From assembly GCA_038042445.1 (NCBI GenBank), contig JBBTED010000029.1, positions 1 through 6,343 on the forward strand: a DNA stretch of 6,343 bases, in the 5' to 3' direction. Within the stretch, counting starts at the first letter, position 1. The number at the start of each line of letters is the position of its first letter. The stretch is from Candidatus Firestoneibacteriota bacterium. GTDB lineage: Bacteria; Oederibacteriota; D2-FULL-39-29; JBBTED01. Positions 1 to 6,343 of the stretch are shown piece by piece. Position numbers and translations under genes: made by a program. Below the pieces are notes generated by a model. That model saw only the letters and a list, made by a program, of their open reading frames with translations, was not told the origin of the DNA and searched no databases.

Positions 1-790
1 CCAATACAGTATCACCTTCATTGCTACTTGCTTTAATAATTCGTTCTAAAAGTTCTTCTGGCTTCTGTGTAGGATAACCTTGCCGTTCTTTAGAAATATT
101 TATTACTGCTGGAATTACCCACCAATCAACTGGCAATACATCTGCATAATATCTACCATCTTCATCCTGTTCTGGATTAAAAAATGGTTTATCATAATAA
201 ATTCTTTCTTTTTTACAATTAAAAATATATTTATCGGTTTTTGTATAAAAAAATATCACATCATGTTTTCTTGAGAAATGTTTTTTACTTGCACCACCAG
301 TCCTATAACACCAAATTACTTCATTCTGGAAATCTCCACCTTTAGGGCAAAATATTGCATCCAAAATCAATTTTAAATAATGGCTTGCAGTAGGGTCGCA
401 ATGCAAATAAAAACTTCCTGTTGGTTTTAATACTCTTTGAATTTCTGCGATTCGTAAAGTCATACTAATTAAATACGCTAATAAACTTTCTTTTCCTAAA
501 ACTCTTGATAATCCTTGTATCAAATCAATACTTTGTGTAGTAAAAACCCCATTATAATTTTCAGCTATTTGGTCAAAACCTTTATTCGCTTCATCATTCC
601 ATTCCCAAGTATCAATAAATGCCTGTGCTTGTGCTTTATCTTCTTCGCCCTTATTAAGATAAATTTGATTGTAGGTTCTTTTTGAATTGAAAGGTGGGTC
701 AATATAGCATAGGTCAATACTGTTATCTTTGATTTTTTTTCTAAGTATTTCTAAATTATCACCATAATAAAGTTCCCTATCTTTAAACAT
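1..790 (-). CDS. Site-specific N6-adenine/N4-cytosine DNA methyltransferase, beta class (Mod/YhdJ-like); 3' end outside the window
   Basis: Manual translation from ATG at 790 is open to the window edge (263 codons): MFKDRELYYGDNLEILRKKIKDNSIDLCYIDPPFNSKRTYN...RVLKPTGSFYLHCD...NEVIWCY...RKHDVIFFY...ERQGYPTQKPEELLERIIKASSNEGDTVL. It contains catalytic motif IV DPPF and the YPTQKPxxLLERII motif that precedes SAM-binding motif I in beta-class MTases. GGAG SD at 801-804; the in-frame stop at 806-808 fixes the start. Confidence 0.93.
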   Translation of the reverse strand, partial: MFKDRELYYGDNLEILRKKIKDNSIDLCYIDPPFNSKRTYNQIYLNKGEEDKAQAQAFIDTWEWNDEANKGFDQIAENYNGVFTTQSIDLIQGLSRVLGKESLLAYLISMTLRIAEIQRVLKPTGSFYLHCDPTASHYLKLILDAIFCPKGGDFQNEVIWCYRTGGASKKHFSRKHDVIFFYTKTDKYIFNCKKERIYYDKPFFNPEQDEDGRYYADVLPVDWWVIPAVINISKERQGYPTQKPEELLERIIKASSNEGDTVL

Positions 791-924
791 AAAAACCCGT
801 CTCCATCACTCACCACAAGTTTTTATATCCTGACTCAGTTAAGAGTCAAGACAGATGAAAACGGGCTTTTTAAACCCGCTTCACATACGCTACTTGTGGT
901 GAGATTTTTTAAATTCAAGCGTAT
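791..924 (-). promoter_or_regulatory. Structured 5' leader (putative two-state translational switch) of the methyltransferase
   Basis: Perfect 12-bp inverted repeat 809-820/892-903. 17-bp helix 854-870/791-807 covering the SD and ending next to the AUG. Internal hairpin 828-836/843-851. Competing hairpin ~858-868/872-882. 7-bp helix 885-891/918-924. The non-Watson-Crick pairs are G-U only on the minus strand. Confidence 0.6.
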
Positions 925-968
925 TTATTCTATTTTATATTTGAAATATTATATCGTTATATTCCTCC

Positions 969-1472
969 TCATTGTAAAAATCCTATTTTCTTTTTTGGTT
1001 TTTCTGGCAATTCAACTGGTTTCATTAGTCGTTTTATAGCCTCAAATACAACTTTAAACTGTTGGTCATATTTTTTCTCCATAGTATCAATTTTTCTTTT
1101 CAATTCTATATAAGTTAAACTTTCTCTCTTTAAATTGACAAATGCTCGCATAATTTGAATATTCACCATAATAGCACGTTCACTATTTAGAACACTGGAT
1201 AACATTGCCACCCCTTGTTCACTAAAAGCATAAGGGAGATAACGCCTACCACCTCTTTTTGAGGTGACAATTTGGCACCTCAAAAATTCACTCTTTGTTA
1301 ATTGAAACATAAAATCTTCTGGAAATCTTTTAATATTTCTACGAACTTGGCGTATTAGATATTTTGTTTCCACACCATAAAGTTCTGCTAAATCTGTATC
1401 CAGCATTACTCTTCTGCCACGAATTTGGGATATTTTGTTTTCTACTCTTTCCTGTGGAATTAAATTTGACAT
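969..1472 (-). CDS. ORF6N domain-containing DNA-binding protein (phage antirepressor-like)
   Basis: 167 aa with the characteristic IRGxxVMLDxDLAELYGVETK...QVRRNxxRFPEDFMFQLT, GGRRYLPYAFxEQGVAMLSSVLNSERAIxVNIQIMRAFV and C-terminal KIGF motifs. Confidence 0.92.
   Translation of the reverse strand: MSNLIPQERVENKISQIRGRRVMLDTDLAELYGVETKYLIRQVRRNIKRFPEDFMFQLTKSEFLRCQIVTSKRGGRRYLPYAFSEQGVAMLSSVLNSERAIMVNIQIMRAFVNLKRESLTYIELKRKIDTMEKKYDQQFKVVFEAIKRLMKPVELPEKPKKKIGFLQ
1256..1286. repeat. 31-bp palindrome inside the ORF6N coding sequence
   Basis: TTTTTGAGGTG-ACAATTTGG-CACCTCAAAAA: perfect 11-bp arms (1256-1266/1276-1286), and the spacer is itself partly symmetric (CAA-T-TTG). Confidence 0.85.
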
Positions 1473-1506
1473 TATTTTTTTCCTTCTTACCTCACCTTAC
1501 AACTAA

Positions 1507-1535
1507 ATTTTAACTCAAACAAATACTATTGGCAA
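1507..1535 (-). promoter_or_regulatory. Sigma70-type promoter for the ORF6N gene
   Basis: Minus strand TTGCCA (1535-1530), 17-nt spacer, TAAAAT (1512-1507), about 35 nt upstream of the ATG. Purine-rich GAGG/AAGGA follows. Confidence 0.65.
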
Positions 1536-1657
1536 GAAATATTTCGTCTAATGTTTTATTCCTAAGATATAGGGAACAACAGTGTGGGGTAAACATTTAA
1601 ATCATTTTTAGATAATGCAGTTGGAAAGTGAGCTTTTATGGTATTTATTGTTTTAGG

Positions 1658-1685
1658 TTTGGATGGGGTATATACCCTATCCAAA
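1658..1685. repeat. 28-bp near-perfect palindrome (plus-strand terminator-like hairpin or protein-binding site)
   Basis: TTTGGATGGGGTAT|ATACCCTATCCAAA with one mismatch that is G-U on the plus strand, followed by TTTT. Confidence 0.6.
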
Positions 1686-1749
1686 TTTTGTGACATTTTT
1701 GTGTCATTTTAGGAGTAAAATCAAGTAAATTTAGGTAAAATTAAGGAAA
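1686..1749. repeat. att-arm-like repeats: 11-bp tandem pair plus four phased 10-bp units
   Basis: TTTTGTGACAT/TTTTGTGTCAT (1686-1696, 1697-1707), then TAGGAGTAAA, ATCAAGTAAA, TTTAGGTAAA, ATTAAGGAAA (1710-1749). They lie 80-140 bp from the tRNA anticodon loop. Confidence 0.6.
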
Positions 1750-1823
1750 CCTAAAATTCAGAATTCTCTTTGTAATACCTACATTTATATTGATTTTGCT
1801 ATGTTTTTAAAATAGCCCAGAAA

Positions 1824-1866
1824 GGATTTCAAGTCCGATGCCTTAGCCAGTTAGGACTAGCTCTCC
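1824..1866 (-). pseudogene. 5' fragment of tRNA-Ser(UGA), truncated in the 3' strand of the anticodon stem (probable att site)
   Basis: Minus strand GGAGAGC TA GTCCTAACTGGCTAAGGC A TCGGA CT-TGA-AA TCC then TTTCTGGG. It has the acceptor 5' strand, a D-loop with GG, and the anticodon arm with TGA at 1831-1829. Only 3 of 5 stem pairs close; no variable arm, GTTCRA T-loop or acceptor 3' strand follows. Confidence 0.8.
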
Positions 1867-1878
1867 GTGATTTTTATA

Positions 1879-2268
1879 TTATAAATCCCAGTAGTTTTTA
1901 GGACTTATAATTCTAATGTTTTTATATGTTTTCAAATCAAGTAAATCCTTATCTCCAGTAATTATAACATTTATTTTATTAATAACTCCGTCAGCTAATA
2001 CCTGATTATCATCTAAGTCTCTACAAATTTTTTCAATTACATTAGCAGTAATTCCTTTAATGAAAAATTTTTCAATAAATATTATAAATTCATTTGTGAT
2101 TGAATCTGAATAATGAAATTTACCCCTGATAACTTTTCTAAATTCATTAATTATAAAAGTAGTGTAATAAATTTCATGTTCATGAATAGCTTGTTCTATA
2201 ACATCATAGGAGCTACCACCACTTATAAAAGCAGCTACTATAACATTAGTATCAAAAAGTATATTCAT
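1879..2268 (-). CDS. vapC: PIN-domain toxin (VapC-like ribonuclease) of a type II toxin-antitoxin pair
   Basis: 129 aa with ILFDTNV, a conserved Glu (INEF), CRDLDDNQVL and IITGDKDLL acidic active-site motifs. 4-nt ATGA overlap with the upstream antitoxin. Confidence 0.9.
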   Translation of the reverse strand: MNILFDTNVIVAAFISGGSSYDVIEQAIHEHEIYYTTFIINEFRKVIRGKFHYSDSITNEFIIFIEKFFIKGITANVIEKICRDLDDNQVLADGVINKINVIITGDKDLLDLKTYKNIRIISPKNYWDL

Positions 2269-2486
2269 GAAACTTGTTCAAAAATTTCTTCTTCAGTTAA
2301 TCGAATTCCTCTTTTTACTGCTTCTATTTTGGCTTTTTTGCGCAAACGATCAAATTTTTCTCTAAAGAAATATTCGCGTAATGCTTTGCGTACAATCTCG
2401 CTTGAATTGGAACTTTCTTCTTTACTCTCACTTTTCAGTTGTCTAAATATAGCATCTGGTAAACTTATAGATATTGAATTTCTCAT
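2265..2486 (-). CDS. Ribbon-helix-helix (CopG/Arc/MetJ) antitoxin
   Basis: 73 aa. N-terminal beta-strand SISISLP, helix, SSEIVRKALREY, and C-terminal GIRLTEEEIF. AAGGGGG SD upstream; translationally coupled to the PIN toxin. Confidence 0.87.
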   Translation of the reverse strand: MRNSISISLPDAIFRQLKSESKEESSNSSEIVRKALREYFFREKFDRLRKKAKIEAVKRGIRLTEEEIFEQVS

Positions 2487-2504
2487 AACTACATACCCCC
2501 TTCT

Positions 2505-2541
2505 TGTAACACAATGTAATACATAAGAATAAATTTGTCAA
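2505..2541 (-). promoter_or_regulatory. TA operon promoter with overlapping autoregulatory operator
   Basis: Perfect TTGACA (2541-2536), 17-nt spacer, TACATT (2518-2513). Two TGTAAYACA quasi-palindromes (2505-2513, 2515-2523) with 10-bp periodicity overlap the -10 and start region. Confidence 0.75.
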
Positions 2542-2643
2542 GAATTTTTGAAATATTAGAAATATTAGACAATCTTTCTCTTTAAATGAATCCACAATAT
2601 TAAAATAAGTCCTATGTTTTTCCAGCATTTTAATCATCAAAAA

Positions 2644-3780
2644 CTATATCAATAAATCTTCTTCTGCTCCAGGAAAAAACCATTTTTGAGCAATAAAAGT
2701 AGGAATAATAGCGCTCGCTATGGCTACACCAACTAATAAAGAATATTGAGATTGGTTTATAAAACCAGAATTTAATCCGAATAAACTTACAATTAGATCA
2801 AAAGTTAACCCGGTACTCATTAATAATGTAAAATACATACTCTCAACACCAATATATTTTTTTGATAAGAAAAAAACTCCTGTAAACTTTGTTGTTAATT
2901 TCAAAATAAACAATATTATAAAAATACCGATACAACTTAAAAGCAATGGCAGAGAAACTTTCAAACCACCAGAAATAAAAAATATAGGTGTAATAAAAGC
3001 ATAAGCAACTGTCCTTAATCTATTCATTAATATTATAGTTTCAGATTTTTTGGAGAAATATTTTGACATAAACAATCCCAAAATAAAAGCTGGTAGTATG
3101 GCATACATACCACTTAATTCAGCAAAAAATACAAATACCAAAAGAATCAGAAAGATATATTTTATTTCAGGTTCTATAACTTTATTTCTTAAAACAGGAT
3201 TGTGAAATATAATATGTGAATATTTGCTTGCAAAAAAAATTACGATTATTGATATCATTATAAAAATGAAACTATACATTGTTGGCTTAACAAATAAAAC
3301 ACTTAATCCCAACGCACCTATTACATTTGTTATAAATGTAGCTGACATCAGTATTTTACCTATTTCAGGTTTTAACATTTTAGTTTCTACAAGCACAGAA
3401 TACACAACAGCAATAGAAGTACTTGATACTGCTAACCCAGCTATTAGCGATGCGTTATAACTCCAGTTAGCTATATAATAAACATATAGAAAAATTCCAG
3501 AAAAAGAAATGAAAAAAGAAAATATGCCTATTAAAAAACTTTCCTTTAATTTTTCTTTTATTGAATCTATATCTATTTCTGTTCCTGCCAAAAATGTTAA
3601 AACTATTCCACCAAAACTTCCTATATATATCATCCATGGCTCAGCTTTTAACCCAAAAGCTCCTGCAATAACACCAAGCAAAACTTCTATTATAGCTACG
3701 GATAATCCTACTTTTAATGATATAAAACTGGAAATAAAAATCAATAACCCCATAATCAATGGAACAACATCTGCTGTCAT
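2644..3780 (-). CDS. Cation:proton antiporter, CPA2/Kef-like membrane domain (Na_H_Exchanger fold), fluoride-riboswitch controlled
   Basis: 378 aa, highly hydrophobic with about 12-13 TM segments. Motifs FLAGTEID, SSTSIAVV, GKILMSA, TPIFFISGGL, KxxxKFxG and LMSTGLTF. AAGGAG SD at 3791-3796. Confidence 0.9.
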   Translation of the reverse strand: MTADVVPLIMGLLIFISSFISLKVGLSVAIIEVLLGVIAGAFGLKAEPWMIYIGSFGGIVLTFLAGTEIDIDSIKEKLKESFLIGIFSFFISFSGIFLYVYYIANWSYNASLIAGLAVSSTSIAVVYSVLVETKMLKPEIGKILMSATFITNVIGALGLSVLFVKPTMYSFIFIMISIIVIFFASKYSHIIFHNPVLRNKVIEPEIKYIFLILLVFVFFAELSGMYAILPAFILGLFMSKYFSKKSETIILMNRLRTVAYAFITPIFFISGGLKVSLPLLLSCIGIFIILFILKLTTKFTGVFFLSKKYIGVESMYFTLLMSTGLTFDLIVSLFGLNSGFINQSQYSLLVGVAIASAIIPTFIAQKWFFPGAEEDLLI

Positions 3781-3826
3781 AAGGATTTATCTCCTTTATA
3801 TCGTATAAATAACTCCATATCTTTAC

Positions 3827-3863
3827 AAATCCCCCTTAATACCCCTTTTTCAAAGTGGGAAAT
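3827..3863. repeat. Degenerate REP-like C-rich/G-rich short element
   Basis: AAATCCCCCTTAATACCCCTTTTTCAAAGTGGGAAAT: C5-N6-C4 followed by an imperfect CCCCTTT..AAAGTGGG hairpin. It resembles, from memory, an interspersed AATCCCCC...CCCCCTTT..AAAGGGGG repeat type. Only one copy in the window. Confidence 0.4.
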
Positions 3864-3899
3864 ATTACTGTACACCCACTAAATTCCCTGAAGACCCAT

Positions 3900-3936
3900 A
3901 AAAAAAATAACCTCTACTATTGCTAGTAGAGGTTAT
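3900..3936 (-). terminator. Intrinsic terminator (expression platform of the fluoride riboswitch)
   Basis: Minus strand ATAACCTCTACTA-GCAA-TAGTAGAGGTTAT (13-bp perfect stem, GNRA loop) followed by T7. Its 5' strand overlaps the aptamer pseudoknot strand. Confidence 0.92.
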
Positions 3937-3976
3937 CATCCTGATTCATCAGACAGTTTTGGCGAACCTCATCGCC
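3926..3976 (-). promoter_or_regulatory. Fluoride riboswitch aptamer (crcB motif)
   Basis: Minus strand GGCGA-UGAGGU-UCGCC AAAACUG UCUGA-UGAA-UCAGG AUGAUA ACCUC UAC. P1 is GGCGA/UCGCC, P2 is a short hairpin, loop GAGGU pairs with ACCUC as the pseudoknot, and the conserved GAUG, UGAU and terminal UAC are present. Confidence 0.93.
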
Positions 3977-3994
3977 ATTTATAATTTTAATAAT

Positions 3995-5152
3995 TTACTT
4001 TTTTGTTGCGGATTCTTTTATTAATTGTAATGCTATTTCATTTCTTTGTATTTGGTTTGTTCCTTCGTAAATCTGTGTTATTTTTGCATCACGCATCATT
4101 TTTTCTACTGGATATTCTTTCATATAGCCATATCCGCCAAAAATCTGAACAGCATTAACAGTAACTTTCATAGCAACATCCGAGCAAAAAAGTTTGCACA
4201 TTGCTGATTCTTTTGCAAAACTTTTAACTTTACCATCTACCATTTTACAGGTAGCATACAAAAGAGCACGAGCTGCCTCTATTTCTGTAGCCATATCAGC
4301 AAGCATATGCTGAACTGCCTGAAAAGATGAAATCGGCTGACCAAATTGCTTTCTGGTGCGTGAATACATTAAAGCTTCTTCAAATGCACCTGCAGCAATT
4401 CCAAGTGCCTGTGCTGCAACTCCTGGCCTTGAATTAAATAACGTATTAACCGCAACTATGAATCCTTTCCCTACTCCACCGAGTATATTTTCTTTTGGAA
4501 TTTTGCAATCCTGAAAAACTAATTCACGGGTAGCAGAAGCACGTATTCCCATTTTATTTTCTTTTTTTCCAAAAGTAAAACCAGGTGTATCTTTTTCAAC
4601 TAAAAATGCCGTTGCTCCTCTTGCACCTCTCGCTTTATCAGTAATTGCAATAACCGCATAAACCTGAGCTTCACCAGCATTTGTTATCCATTGTTTTGTC
4701 CCATTTAAAATATAATAATCTCCATCTGCTTTTGCTGTTGTTTCCATTGCACCAGCATCAGAACCGGCATTTGCTTCAGTTAAACCAAATGCAGCGATTA
4801 TTTCACCTTTTGAAATCTTTGGCAGATATTTTTTCTTCTGCTCTTCACTTCCAAATAATAAAATTGGAAATGTTCCAAGTGCAGTAGCAGCAAATGCAAG
4901 TGATATTCCACCACAAACCTTGCTTAATTCTTCAACTGCCAAACACAATTCAAAACAACCTGCACCAAAACCGCCATATTCCTGTGGTATATACACCCCA
5001 CATATATCAGCTTCTCCAAGTGCTTTAACAATATCCCATGGAAATACTCCTTCTTCATCATATTTCTCACGGATAGGTTTAACTTTTTTCTCAGCTATTT
5101 CCTTACATATCTGTACTATCATCTTTTGTTCTTCAGTTAAAAAGTATTCCAT
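3995..5152 (-). CDS. Acyl-CoA dehydrogenase (short-chain/butyryl-CoA dehydrogenase-like)
   Basis: 385 aa with FGLTEANAGSDA, LNGTKQWITNA, KENKMGIRASAT, RKQFGQPI, QIFGGYGY and catalytic-Glu IYEGTNQIQR motifs. AGGAG SD lies within the end of rnc. Confidence 0.96.
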   Translation of the reverse strand: MEYFLTEEQKMIVQICKEIAEKKVKPIREKYDEEGVFPWDIVKALGEADICGVYIPQEYGGFGAGCFELCLAVEELSKVCGGISLAFAATALGTFPILLFGSEEQKKKYLPKISKGEIIAAFGLTEANAGSDAGAMETTAKADGDYYILNGTKQWITNAGEAQVYAVIAITDKARGARGATAFLVEKDTPGFTFGKKENKMGIRASATRELVFQDCKIPKENILGGVGKGFIVAVNTLFNSRPGVAAQALGIAAGAFEEALMYSRTRKQFGQPISSFQAVQHMLADMATEIEAARALLYATCKMVDGKVKSFAKESAMCKLFCSDVAMKVTVNAVQIFGGYGYMKEYPVEKMMRDAKITQIYEGTNQIQRNEIALQLIKESATKK

Positions 5153-5156
5153 ATTT

Positions 5157-5858
5157 CTACCATCTCCTTTTCAAAGCAGTTTTTGCCGCATTCTGTTCAG
5201 CTTCTTTTTTACTATTACCTACTCCCTTACCTATAATTTCACCATTTAAAAAAACCCCTATTTCAAAAGTTTTCTTATGTTCAGGACCATAAGCTTTCAT
5301 TTCTTTATAATGTGGCGCTTTTTTAAATTGAGCTTGTATTTTTTCCTGAAGCAAACTTTTGCTATCTGCTTCCAATTTTTCTTTGATTTCTCCTGATAAT
5401 TCAATAGCAAATTGTTTTACAATAAAATTTTCTGCTGGTTTCAATCCTGAATCTAAATATATTGCCCCTATTATTGCCTCAAGAGTATTTGCCAAAATAG
5501 ATGGCCTGACTCTTCCACCTGTTAGTATCTCTCCTCTTCCAAGCAAAATATAATCTCCAAACTTTAAAGATAACGCTTTTTTTGCCAAACCAGAAGCAGA
5601 AACTATGTTGCCTTTTAATTTTGACAAATCACCTTCACCTAAATTATGGTACTTTTTATAAAGAAAACTACTTATAACCAATCCAAGCACTGAATCCCCT
5701 AAAAATTCCATTCTCTCATTAGAATCAGAAACTTTAAGTTTGTTTTCGTGAACGTATGAACGATGTATCAAAGCATGATTTAAGAAACTAATATTCCTAA
5801 ATCGGACATTTAAAATAGGCTGTAATAGCATTAATTGTTCTAATCTTGCTTTTGTCAT
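5157..5858 (-). CDS. rnc: Ribonuclease III
   Basis: 233 aa with ALIHRSY, the RNase III signature NERMEFLGDSVLG, EAIIGAIYLDSG and a C-terminal dsRBD (KSLLQE...GPEHKKTF...GxGNSKKEAEQNAA). Conserved position after fabF. Confidence 0.97.
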   Translation of the reverse strand: MTKARLEQLMLLQPILNVRFRNISFLNHALIHRSYVHENKLKVSDSNERMEFLGDSVLGLVISSFLYKKYHNLGEGDLSKLKGNIVSASGLAKKALSLKFGDYILLGRGEILTGGRVRPSILANTLEAIIGAIYLDSGLKPAENFIVKQFAIELSGEIKEKLEADSKSLLQEKIQAQFKKAPHYKEMKAYGPEHKKTFEIGVFLNGEIIGKGVGNSKKEAEQNAAKTALKRRW

Positions 5859-5867
5859 TGTTATTTT

Positions 5868-6343
5868 TTATGAAGAATATTTTTTAAAAAGAAGTGTGGC
5901 ATTATGCCCGCCAAATCCAAAAGCATTCGACATAGCAACACAAATCTCCTGTTCCCTTGCTTTATTTGGAACATAGTCAAGGTCACACTTCGGATCCGGA
6001 TTTTCTAAATTTATAGTAGGAGTCAAAATATTATTTTTTATAGAAAGTATTGTAGCTATAGCTTCTGCACCTCCTGCAGCACCAAGCAAATGACCAATCA
6101 TAGATTTAGTAGAACTTACTGCAAGTTTATAACTATGTTTTCCAAAAACTGTTTTTATTGCCTCAGTTTCACATATATCTCCAGGTATCGTTGAAGTTCC
6201 GTGTGCATTTATATAATCTACATCTTCCGGTGCAATATCCGCGTCCTTAATAGCCATTTGCATTGCACGTGCTCCACCCTCTCCACAAGGAGCTGGCGCT
6301 GTAATGTGATAAGCATCAGCAGTTAAACCATAACCTGCCATTT
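5868..6343 (-). CDS. fabF: Beta-ketoacyl-ACP synthase II, C-terminal part (5' end outside the window)
   Basis: [45 protein letters not shown] and [11 protein letters not shown] motifs. The Met at 6341 is internal. Confidence 0.95.

Follow-up and report, generated by a model that had tools for sequence, protein, structure and literature searches.

A conserved RNA module of about 150 nt looks like a portable, uncatalogued gene-control switch. It is best explained as a cis-acting RNA leader carried on integrative mobile elements, between the genes of the element and a cargo gene on the same strand, where it would decide whether RNA polymerase reads through. For the model developed below, in which the module would be a kinetically controlled terminator/antiterminator leader gating read-through from the core genes of the mobile element into its cargo, we judge the chances to be about even. 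The module lies at positions 786-938 on the minus strand of the window, the whole stretch of 6,343 nt analysed here (Candidatus Firestoneibacteriota bacterium, assembly GCA_038042445.1, contig JBBTED010000029.1, positions 1-6,343 of the forward strand). A preliminary description of this DNA had proposed an RNA leader that gates translation of a DNA methyltransferase. The observation holds and the interpretation is partly supported: a structured element is present on the mRNA strand, but it is not methyltransferase-specific, because the same module precedes unrelated genes on other mobile elements.

In the window, the module is followed on the minus strand by an N6/N4 DNA methyltransferase gene (2-790; Pfam PF01555, E = 3e-29) that is truncated by the contig end; its match to the NCBIfam adenine-specific methyltransferase PRK11524 is partial and falls under the cut-off of that family. 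Upstream on the same strand is an ORF6N/KilA-N-type gene (969-1472; Pfam PF10543, E = 6e-34), whose stop codon is 30 nt ahead of the RNA module. The 5′ half of a tRNA-Ser(TGA) is located at 1824-1868 (minus strand), with 44 of 45 nt (97.8%) identical to an intact tRNA-Ser on contig C14 (c10383-10469); ARAGORN called no tRNA in the window. Immediately before the intact tRNA-Ser on C14 is a 391-aa ORF whose N-terminus, judged by eye, resembles a tyrosine integrase. The tRNA-Ser half is likely the left attachment site of the mobile element bearing the module. Taken with the integrase-like ORF ahead of the intact tRNA, it bears out the earlier placement of the module on a mobile element.

The segments A, D, B, C, A′ and B′ of the preliminary description were all found on the minus strand. 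The 5′ arm of helix P1 (918-924) pairs with 891-885; this 3′ arm (885-891) also serves as a junction strand in the three-way-junction fold. Segment A (892-903), in the P1 loop, is the 5′ arm of a long-range helix and complements A′ (809-820) at 12 of 12 positions, confirming the perfect inverted repeat. D (872-882) is the 5′ arm of the D:B hairpin and sequesters B (854-870), a shared arm whose partner is either D or B′, as judged from covariation and from blocking D in silico. The D:B hairpin has 11 pairs and a 3-nt loop, and gives the sole terminator-like call (882-858) in 600-1700 (mean of 0.4 sites in shuffles). Hairpin C (826-853; 11 bp with a hexaloop) extends an inverted repeat at 851-828 and carries TTGACT at 849-844. 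It is followed by an A-rich junction strand, GATATAAAAAC (819-829), which includes a TATAAA motif and is invariant in 5/5 copies. A′ is the 3′ arm of the long-range helix and would be a bulge in the terminator fold. B′ (791-807) supplies the 3′ arm of the terminator-like helix; a single base separates it from A′, and it contains GGAG at 804-801. The U run after B′ (781-795) here includes the methyltransferase ATG (790-788), which is directly 3′ of B′.

Five distinct copies of the module were recovered: the window, two other Firestonebacteria genomes (G001, identical to L020, and G005) and two metagenome contigs (L023, identical to L024, and L026). BLAST and a covariance model identified it as the sole sequence common to the five loci. 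The BLAST matches in G001 and G005 were confined to window positions 942-783 (query 159-318), the covariance model extends over 779-940, and the alignment of a variant contig from run X5 is limited to 792-946. When the five loci were compared pairwise by BLAST, the module was the only common block and the flanking DNA was without similarity. The context ORFs of the five loci had no mutual similarity at 1e-4, so that no common neighbouring trans factor was found. The genes downstream are an adenine methyltransferase in the window and, in other copies, a MORN/CsgG-like lipoprotein, a bPH_2 membrane protein and a CarboxypepD_reg lipoprotein. A same-strand ORF begins 0-70 nt downstream in all four copies with known downstream sequence, and a same-strand ORF lies upstream in the three copies having a called upstream ORF. 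In L023 the module directly follows primase and DnaB-like helicase genes, with an integrase 1.2 kb away.

These gene positions bear on the earlier proposal that a helix buries the Shine-Dalgarno (SD) sequence and ends at the start codon. The arrangement is present in the window copy; elsewhere it is absent, as the annotated gene start lies there only in the window, and in the three other copies with a known downstream gene the start is 25-70 nt beyond B′ and the U run. Thus, SD/AUG burial is peculiar to the window copy. An ATG at the equivalent U-run position in L026 opens a frame of just 7 codons.

The module was found in 3 of 13 genomes of the class by both BLAST and the covariance model, with one copy per genome. 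The covariance model detected no real copy beyond these three in 99 genomes of the phylum; a fourth match (G059, E = 0.041) proved on inspection to be two ordinary terminators. Among 401 genomes including other phyla, the same three were recovered along with a 22-nt chance match. The large collections were searched by exact pattern, not by the covariance model. The pattern scan of genome contigs gave two loci, one of them real (the record of G005) and the other, from Planctomycetales, without a covariance-model match. Of 12 loci from metagenomes, four fit the model and represent two new distinct copies plus duplicates, including that of G001; the other eight were unrelated coding sequence or chance matches. 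Four pattern scans of viral contigs together gave a single match, in coding DNA, which failed the covariance model, and no match was obtained in the plasmid (72,556 records) and phage (50,697 records) collections. A full-text literature search limited to Firestonebacteria and RNA-element topics gave no paper containing the taxon among the best 10 matches.

No Rfam family was found in a permissive cmscan against Rfam 15 (window 600-1200; L026, L002 and L003 whole; L023 3700-4300), in agreement with the earlier remark that no recognised riboswitch class fits. The best scores were at noise level (13.9-20.9 bits against gathering thresholds of 36-114; E of 1.2-8.6), and bacterial cis-regulatory families and C4 were absent even from these noise matches. 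Transcriptional ON riboswitches usually combine a three-way junction, in which the junction strands are invariant, with a competing terminator behind it; the pbuE adenine riboswitch, with its three-way-junction aptamer, is an example. A metabolite riboswitch with the three-way junction as aptamer would share this layout and, since the known classes all fail to match, would be a new class. Such a riboswitch is highly improbable: the downstream genes (methyltransferase, two lipoproteins, a bPH membrane protein) have no common metabolic theme, the module is sporadic (3/13 class genomes) and borne on mobile elements, and the closing helix, hypervariable in sequence, has an unusual length of 12 bp. 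The SAM or SAH ligand suggested at first is itself unlikely, because the downstream genes vary across copies. The module resembles pbuE-type riboswitches in having a three-way junction whose two hairpins lie side by side and whose junction strands are conserved, and in a terminator that would form by invading part of the junction. It differs in having no ligand-related gene association, in its 12-bp hypervariable closing helix, the 3′ arm of which would be taken into the terminator as a bulge, and in matching no known class.

The helices in the module are far beyond chance. The 151-nt sense RNA has a minimum free energy (MFE) of -51.8 kcal/mol (z = -5.9), a value equalled by none of 200 shuffles. 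When the 160-nt element was shuffled with dinucleotides preserved, a perfect helix of at least 12 bp arose in 1 of 1000 shuffles, and so did a G·U-tolerant helix of at least 17 bp. The structure is strand-specific: the opposite strand of the window module reached just -33.5 kcal/mol (z = -3.75), and the sense strand was favoured over the antisense by 10-20 kcal/mol in 5/5 copies. The imperfect pairs, earlier described as G·U on the coding strand only, follow the same pattern over the five homologues, with 34 G·U cells (D:B 9, C 12, B:B′ 13) against one A·C cell (D:B 0, C 0, B:B′ 1).

The strand-specific structure and its location on mobile elements would also fit a signal that the element uses as single-stranded DNA, for instance a lagging-strand origin, a priming site or a site resembling a transfer origin. 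The same helices recur with DNA folding parameters (z = -3.9), and the position in L023 is directly behind primase and DnaB-like helicase genes. This explanation is nevertheless very unlikely. About one fifth of the cells in D:B, C and B:B′ are G·U, which is costly in DNA, and both the U run behind B′ and the location close before a gene start belong to transcription control. The plasmid and phage collections contained no matching record, and the loci examined had no relaxase or rolling-circle Rep gene.

Covariation in homologous leaders, which the preliminary description had named as a check, was found. The whole-structure covariation score of 0.257, compared with 0.160 in shuffles, was reached by none of 500 shuffles, a significance that is overstated since the five distinct sequences and the short contig variants are mutually related. 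Paired cells amounted to 91.7%, against 38-52% in slid controls. In A:A′, 8 of 12 pairs changed on both sides among the five sequences, with 53 Watson-Crick cells and no G·U across the copies. The column identity of A is 0.73, as against 0.91-0.96 for D, B and B′. The A:A′ helix of G005 is degraded, having five unpaired cells. In variants from run X5, changes at 894 and 901 convert A:A′ pairs to G·U on the sense strand only. Two contig pieces have a deletion at 810 and at 902, which would amount to a compensated loss of one base pair if both came from the same molecule. P1, examined by eye, has different yet complementary arms in L026 and one G·U in G005.

The B:B′ and D:B helices are nearly invariant. 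D:B is paired in 100% of cells, with four pairs varying on one side and none on both. B:B′ (13 pairs, five sequences) is paired in 98.5% of cells, with one pair changed on both sides (C-G to U-A via a U·G intermediate), four changed on one side and one C·A mismatch in G005. Direct covariation support for B:B′ is thin, as the changes are mostly purine transitions opposite U that pair by default. Hairpin C is paired in 100% of cells with one pair altered on both sides, its stem length differs among copies, and the X5 variants alter partner positions in it (832 with 847, 835 with 844). A leader peptide was considered and rejected: the ATG or GTG just before D opens frames that differ in length and register, in the window the start is followed at once by a stop, there is no consistent SD, and the conservation is not codon-like.

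The TTGACT and TATAAA motifs raise the alternative that the module is a terminator plus promoter cassette. Here D:B would terminate the upstream operon, transcription of the cargo would begin inside A′ from TTGACT (849-844) and TATAAA (827-822), and a DNA-binding protein would recognise hairpin C as a palindromic operator. D:B is indeed the sole terminator-like site in the window region, the two hexamers hardly vary, and conservation within hairpin C is higher in the 5′ arm than in the 3′ arm (0.93 against 0.82). The spacer between the hexamers is 16 nt in three of the five copies, but it drops to 14 nt in L026 and 12 nt in G001 while the stem complementarity is kept, which argues that the hairpin and not the promoter is the selected feature. 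The -10 hexamer lacks its final T, and the promoter scan accordingly gives no call. Wherever hairpin C departs from symmetry, the sense strand has G·U (12 cells at five positions) and never A·C, a bias that a DNA palindrome would lack. The covariation of A, ahead of the terminator, with A′, beyond the start, is also left unexplained, and the cassette appears unlikely.

The same promoter-like motif is flanked by the perfect 12-bp inverted repeats, as would be found if these were recombination sites around an invertible promoter segment of 71 bp (821-891). Such an inverton is scarcely credible. All five copies and the X5 variants are collinear, contigs of four runs (in which rare variants are dropped) contain no strand-changing joint, and the one-arm changes in X5 yield G·U pairs on the sense strand but not on its complement. 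At 71 bp the segment is also very short, and in the loci examined the only recombinase gene nearby is the L023 integrase at 1.2 kb.

Both competing folds were obtained in silico in 5/5 copies, upholding the earlier view of interleaved helices that compete. Fold 1, the three-way junction of A:A′, D:B and C, is the MFE structure of all five full-length copies. Fold 2, which consists of P1 and a long B-C-B′ hairpin ending at the U run, was obtained in 5/5 copies when D was blocked in silico and lies 6.4 to 12.7 kcal/mol above fold 1. Transcript prefixes ending before A′ gave P1, D:B and C in all five copies, so that P1 displays A in its loop as predicted earlier. Just past B′, the MFE structure is fold 1 in four copies and fold 2 in L026. 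Findpath gave high barriers, of 14-38 kcal/mol, for passing from one completed fold to the other in the four copies with a valid comparison. The fold 2 stem has a 20-nt bulge, atypical for an intrinsic terminator, and the size and bulge of the B-C-B′ hairpin are outside the range of the terminator scan. D:B with its U-rich tail was called terminator-like in 3/5 copies, and transcription might stop there, ahead of A′ and B′ synthesis.

In the terminator/antiterminator model, these folds would correspond to the two states of the leader. Fold 1 would allow read-through: with A:A′ closed over the hairpins D:B and C, D occupies B and B′ stays out of its reach, so that the U run would have no hairpin preceding it. 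Fold 2 would be the stop state, with P1 formed, A exposed in its loop, and B, C and B′ joined into one long hairpin in which A′ is a bulge and which ends at the U run like an intrinsic terminator. The comparisons above show conservation, covariation, strand specificity and the occurrence of both folds in every copy; from these we infer transcription of the module, termination by fold 2, and a co-transcriptional choice of fold that hinges on A being free to capture A′. Termination is likelier than SD masking as the general output, because B′ and the U run are kept in all copies (a T run follows B′ in 5/5). In the window copy, where B′ and the U run include GGAG and the ATG, fold 2 would in addition block methyltransferase translation. 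For G005, a separate terminator-like hairpin just upstream of the module casts doubt on read-through from the preceding genes.

That hairpin in G005 suggests an independent transcription unit and is one of the observations compatible with a stand-alone small RNA of about 150 nt, with its own promoter and an end at the U run. The RNA would be a three-way junction acting in trans or binding a protein, and the alternative fold would be functionless. The status of fold 1 as MFE in 5/5 copies, the invariant junction strands, the single copy per genome and AT-rich -10-like hexamers just upstream in several copies are all in line with it. However, promoter scans found no conserved promoter upstream of the module among the five copies, and the TAAAAT of the three Firestonebacteria copies is out of register in L023 and L026. 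In the outer helix that would join the ends of the RNA, none of the pairs changed on both sides, and two positions are disrupted in L026. A stand-alone RNA would also fail to explain why B′ is conserved in a sequence so close to that of D, and a gene begins 0-70 nt downstream in 4/4 copies. We consider it rather unlikely.

The contrast between a hypervariable, perfectly Watson-Crick A:A′ helix and a nearly invariant remainder favours an element-specific RNA over a metabolite as the trigger of the switch. An alternative to the switch would be a self-targeting antisense pair in the style of P1 c4 and P4 CI. The 5′ part of the module, comprising P1 with A in its loop and the D:B hairpin as terminator, would be released as a small stable RNA. 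This RNA would use A and B to pair in trans with A′ and B′ on transcripts that are longer or have a start of their own, and the outcome would be a blocked ribosome site or forced termination. The presence of A in a hairpin loop, the terminator-like D:B in 3/5 copies and a hypervariable A:A′ without G·U, as expected of a specificity-determining antisense contact, are consistent with this. B is complementary on both sides, to D and to B′, and a B flanked by complements resembles the seqA-seqB-seqC arrangement of P4. The host elements bear integrase, primase and DnaB-like helicase genes. Against these points, Rfam gave no match to C4 or another family, B would be buried in a stable hairpin of the proposed small RNA, only the window copy has the SD and AUG of a gene in B′ and the U run, and in 2/5 copies the tail after D:B is too U-poor for a terminator call. 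The antisense pair is thus doubtful.

The terminator/antiterminator leader could itself be triggered by its own kind. In a tentative and on balance unlikely extension of that model, the module would be an RNA-only self-recognition circuit of the mobile element, with A:A′ as a lineage barcode. The terminated leader would accumulate, showing A in the P1 loop and A′ in the terminator bulge, and, acting in trans, would bind the corresponding A or A′ in leaders still being transcribed from elements of its own type. Such pairing would prevent the A:A′ lock, and the nascent leaders would take the terminator fold. The element could in this way sense how many copies of itself, or how much of its transcript, are present, or keep out an incoming relative, requiring neither a protein nor an opposite-strand transcript. 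The hypervariable, perfectly complementary A:A′ would then be an immunity or incompatibility barcode differing between element lineages. The preliminary description had raised trans copies of A in the genome; the 2.81-Mb assembly contains no second occurrence of the A 12-mer.

Leaders of the terminator/antiterminator kind are already well known, as are antisense attenuators. The pT181-type attenuators, which are driven by antisense RNA and act on plasmid replication genes, involve a kissing-hairpin interaction, an antiterminator sequence in the first hairpin and a specificity region (PMC3753616). Like them, the module has mutually exclusive antiterminator and terminator folds (here in silico), a fold choice that would be tied to a free 5′ hairpin loop, and specificity that would lie in a few loop or upper-stem bases that may be swapped into orthogonal pairs. 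Unlike them, it has no countertranscript promoter on the opposite strand, the promoter scan of plus-strand 780-930 giving no promoter-like site; the loop partner A′ is encoded on the same strand in the same leader; and cargo genes, not rep, lie downstream. There is no sequence relation.

In phage P1, the C4 RNA controls ant in the immI region (PMC8201110). The module is like P1/P7 c4 and P4 CI in having an antisense determinant upstream of its target on the same strand (A/A′ and B/B′, 5/5 copies), in belonging to an element that is temperate or integrative, and in a target that covers the ribosome site in the window copy. It is unlike them in matching no Rfam family in any of the five copies, in having no gene start codon within B′ or the U run in 4/5 copies, and in a conserved output that resembles a terminator.

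What distinguishes the module is that a portable 150-nt cassette stands before unrelated cargo on integrative elements, in a candidate phylum without experimental genetics. Both arms of its specificity-like helix lie on the leader's own strand, and each lineage has its own perfectly matched A:A′ pair. If the switch works as proposed, the naturally orthogonal variants could serve as regulatory parts. Should the module prove to be no more than a stable three-way-junction RNA or a signal in DNA, it would still be a new conserved mobile-element motif. If the switch is true, it would show mobile elements insulating or dosing the expression of their cargo, here an adenine methyltransferase.

The segments of the RNA module upstream of the DNA methyltransferase (MTase) gene were located by reading the minus strand of positions 780-970; the window is the entire contig C29. 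All segments named in the preliminary description were found in place, including the 12 perfect pairs of A:A'. A (903-892) and A' (820-809) form a perfect 12-bp inverted repeat with 71 nt between the arms, and P1 is formed by 924-918 paired with 891-885. D:B (882-858) is a terminator-like hairpin of 11 pairs with a 3-nt loop and a TTTT tail, the sole such site called by a terminator scan within 600-1700. Hairpin C (851-828) folds as 11 pairs spanning 853-826. B' (807-791) starts one base 3' of A' and ends at the ATG of a 263-codon open-ended ORF at 2-790. Between P1 and D (881-886, minus strand) lies an ATG followed immediately by TGA; the same ATG, or a GTG, opens short frames of differing length in other copies. 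The sense RNA has an MFE of -51.8 kcal/mol (z = -5.9; matched by 0 of 200 shuffles) and the opposite strand one of -33.5 kcal/mol (z = -3.75). A perfect helix of at least 12 bp arises in 1 of 1000 dinucleotide shuffles, as does a G·U-tolerant helix of at least 17 bp. The helices of the window module are well beyond chance expectation. The search for trans copies proposed earlier gave no extra copy of the A 12-mer in the 2.81-Mb, 181-contig assembly.

To locate other copies, BLAST of window 600-1100 was carried out against 61 related genomes. Two other genomes matched, over query 159-318 (window 942-783) only, an intergenic block. Of 13 genomes in the class, 3 have the module; a covariance-model search of 99 genomes from the phylum likewise gave 3, a fourth weak match being rejected on reading. 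The same three genomes carry it among 401 that include other phyla. When metagenome contigs were scanned once with an exact pattern, 12 loci matched, and the covariance model confirmed 4 of them. L020 is identical to the copy of genome G001, L023 and L024 share one further sequence, and L026 adds another. Six pattern-sharing loci (L018, L019, L022, L025, L028 and L029) are unrelated to the module; in these the pattern apparently lies within the 5' end of a conserved opposite-strand coding region. In total there are five distinct copies, and no genome has more than one.

Pairwise BLAST of the five loci showed that the block alone is shared (76-165 nt, 73.5-84% identity), and BLASTP between their flanking ORFs gave no similarity. 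The window copy lies between an ORF6N gene and the MTase. The G001 copy follows hypothetical genes and runs to the contig end. The copy of the third genome, G005, has no ORF of at least 60 aa in 541 nt upstream and is followed by a MORN/CsgG-like lipoprotein and tRNA-Val. In L023 a DnaG-type primase and a DnaB-like helicase precede the module, and a bPH_2 protein, a lipoprotein, a tyrosine integrase, Fic, MerR and HTH_17 follow. L026 has no neighbouring ORF upstream and a CarboxypepD_reg lipoprotein downstream. As other copies precede lipoproteins and a bPH_2 protein, the link to a methyltransferase and to SAM/SAH drawn earlier is incidental. A 504-nt variant contig from run X5 aligns at window 792-946 only and then diverges; since the alignment stops at 792, the 3' border is the U run holding the MTase ATG. 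By these comparisons, the module is autonomous. Every neighbouring ORF is on the same strand as the module, and a gene starts 0-70 nt 3' of it in the four copies with known downstream sequence. It is possible that the module is a stand-alone small RNA; G005 has a terminator-like hairpin just upstream of it, but an upstream promoter is not conserved among the copies. In L026 a near-consensus promoter-like TTGACA-16-TATACT (11 of 12) is seen at 533-560, about 150 nt upstream, and the module would then lie in a long 5' leader.

Pairing was counted on a covariance-model-based alignment of the five copies. In the nested structure 91.7% of cells are paired; shifting the partners by 1-3 columns lowers this to 38-52%. 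Both partners have changed in 13 pairs, where shuffles give 5.6 ± 1.6 (0 of 500 have as many). Nearly all covariation is held by A:A' (8 of 12 pairs changed); hairpin C has one pair changed on both sides and D:B none, with four one-sided changes. By eye, A/A' pairs are perfect yet different in four copies and degraded in G005. The P1 arms, also by eye, are identical in the window, G001 and L023, carry one G·U in G005, and form a different, complementary pair in L026. For B:B', 13 pairs were scored and 98.5% of their cells are paired; 4 pairs have one-sided changes, one passes from C-G via U·G to U-A among copies, and this helix has little direct covariation. Column identity is 0.73 for A and A', 0.95 for D, 0.96 for B and 0.91 for B'.

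Sense folding beats antisense by 10-20 kcal/mol in all five copies. The claim that imperfect pairs are G·U on the coding strand only was borne out, with 9, 12 and 13 G·U cells in D:B, C and B:B' against 0, 0 and 1 A·C cells; A:A' has 53 Watson-Crick cells and no G·U. Among X5 contig variants, 832 changes with 847 and 835 with 844, partner positions in hairpin C. With the variants at 894 and 901, A:A' acquires G·U pairs on the sense strand alone, and single-base deletions occur at partner positions 810 and 902 on two separate contig pieces. An inverton was without support from the run contigs. A single-stranded-DNA signal, with which the pairing data taken alone are compatible, is an improbable reading. 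The TTGACT-16-TATAAA motif in hairpin C could also be a promoter with its start inside A', but the spacer measures 16, 16, 16, 14 and 12 nt across the five copies while the stem remains paired, and TATAAA lacks the final T of a -10 element.

Unconstrained MFE prediction gave a three-way junction of A:A', D:B and C in every copy. When D was barred from pairing, all five gave P1 plus one long hairpin, in which B:B' is stacked under hairpin C and A' forms a bulge of about 20 nt; a T run lies 3' of B' in each. Both competing folds of the preliminary description are predicted in all five copies, and its structural reading was right. The long-hairpin fold is 6.4-12.7 kcal/mol costlier than the junction. 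Transcripts cut short before A' are predicted to form P1, D:B and C in all five; when A' is added, A:A' takes over from P1. Just after B', the long hairpin is the MFE in L026 and the junction in the other four copies. A heuristic estimate puts the barriers to refolding from one finished fold to the other at 14-38 kcal/mol (four copies with a valid comparison), and therefore the choice of fold would have to occur during synthesis or via a factor.

These predictions suggest the following scheme. Should A, displayed in the P1 loop, catch A', the rigid 12-bp helix would close the junction and stabilise D:B; the 3 nt of B left unpaired beside hairpin C would then be out of reach of the 5' end of B'. 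With the junction closed, no hairpin would precede the U run and polymerase would continue. Were A occupied, A' would remain a flexible linker, B' could nucleate beside hairpin C and push D off B, whereupon the long hairpin would form at the U run, leading to termination. In the window copy, to which the RBS overlap is peculiar, it would also occlude GGAG (804-801) and the ATG. D:B itself is called terminator-like in three of five copies but not in the other two; were it a true terminator, a small trans-acting RNA like P1 c4 would be favoured. As for what occupies A in the terminator/antiterminator scheme, we think an RNA of the same element likelier than a metabolite or a general host protein, since A:A' is the sole hypervariable, perfectly matched part of a near-invariant module.

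All window genes are on the minus strand. First in order are the FabF C-terminus, RNase III, acyl-CoA dehydrogenase and a Na+/H+ exchanger, followed by an RHH (CopG-type) gene overlapping a PIN-domain gene (1879-2486), a probable toxin-antitoxin pair just beyond the presumed element end. The 5' half of tRNA-Ser(TGA) lies at 1868-1824, 44 of its 45 nt identical to an intact gene on C14, another contig of this genome; ARAGORN called no tRNA in the window. On C14 (10383-11685) a 391-aa ORF, whose N-terminus resembles a tyrosine integrase by eye, immediately precedes the intact tRNA-Ser. Window 1823-1 is therefore taken to be the left end of an element inserted into tRNA-Ser, which supports the mobile-element location suggested earlier; window 1824-1868 and the C14 region look like both ends of one integrated element divided between contigs. 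Within it, the ORF6N/KilA-N-type gene (972-1472) is followed 3' by the module and then by the N6_N4 DNA methyltransferase (2-790), for which the nearest NCBIfam model, adenine-specific PRK11524, matched under cut-off because the gene is truncated at the contig end.

A 28-nt palindrome at 1658-1685, upstream of the ORF6N gene, is a possible operator. Two further ORF6N genes are present in this genome, on contigs C95 (17503-18846) and C133 (14111-16411). Upstream of the C133 gene lies a region sharing 78% identity with window 1473-1707, and the palindrome recurs there. The RNA module is absent from both loci. Each adjoins a lipoprotein with an N-terminal 'IAVIDLEP'-type motif, and a similar motif is seen in the CsgG-like part of the lipoprotein 3' of the G005 module. 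In three groundwater runs the summed contig depth reaches 94-803 at the ORF6N core (1274-1340), where many contigs end, against about 1-17 at the module (bins 805-1005; lowest in run X4); this conserved core is very widespread in these groundwater communities.

Rfam models gave no match to the module, in agreement with the earlier view that it belongs to no recognised riboswitch class. By analogy, its logic is closest to antisense-driven attenuators such as pT181, and is also near the P1 and P4 same-strand antisense RNAs. PMC3753616 sets out a kissing-hairpin contact, with the antiterminator located in the first hairpin and specificity bases that are interchangeable, and PMC8201110 the control of ant by C4. 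The module is not a member of either group. No opposite-strand promoter was found in the scan, the genes that it would regulate are cargo, and its RBS overlap is confined to the window copy. The module is real: over five distinct copies, the sequence data show a conserved structure, carried by mobile elements and specific to one strand, whose two competing folds are both conserved. It most likely acts as a terminator/antiterminator leader.
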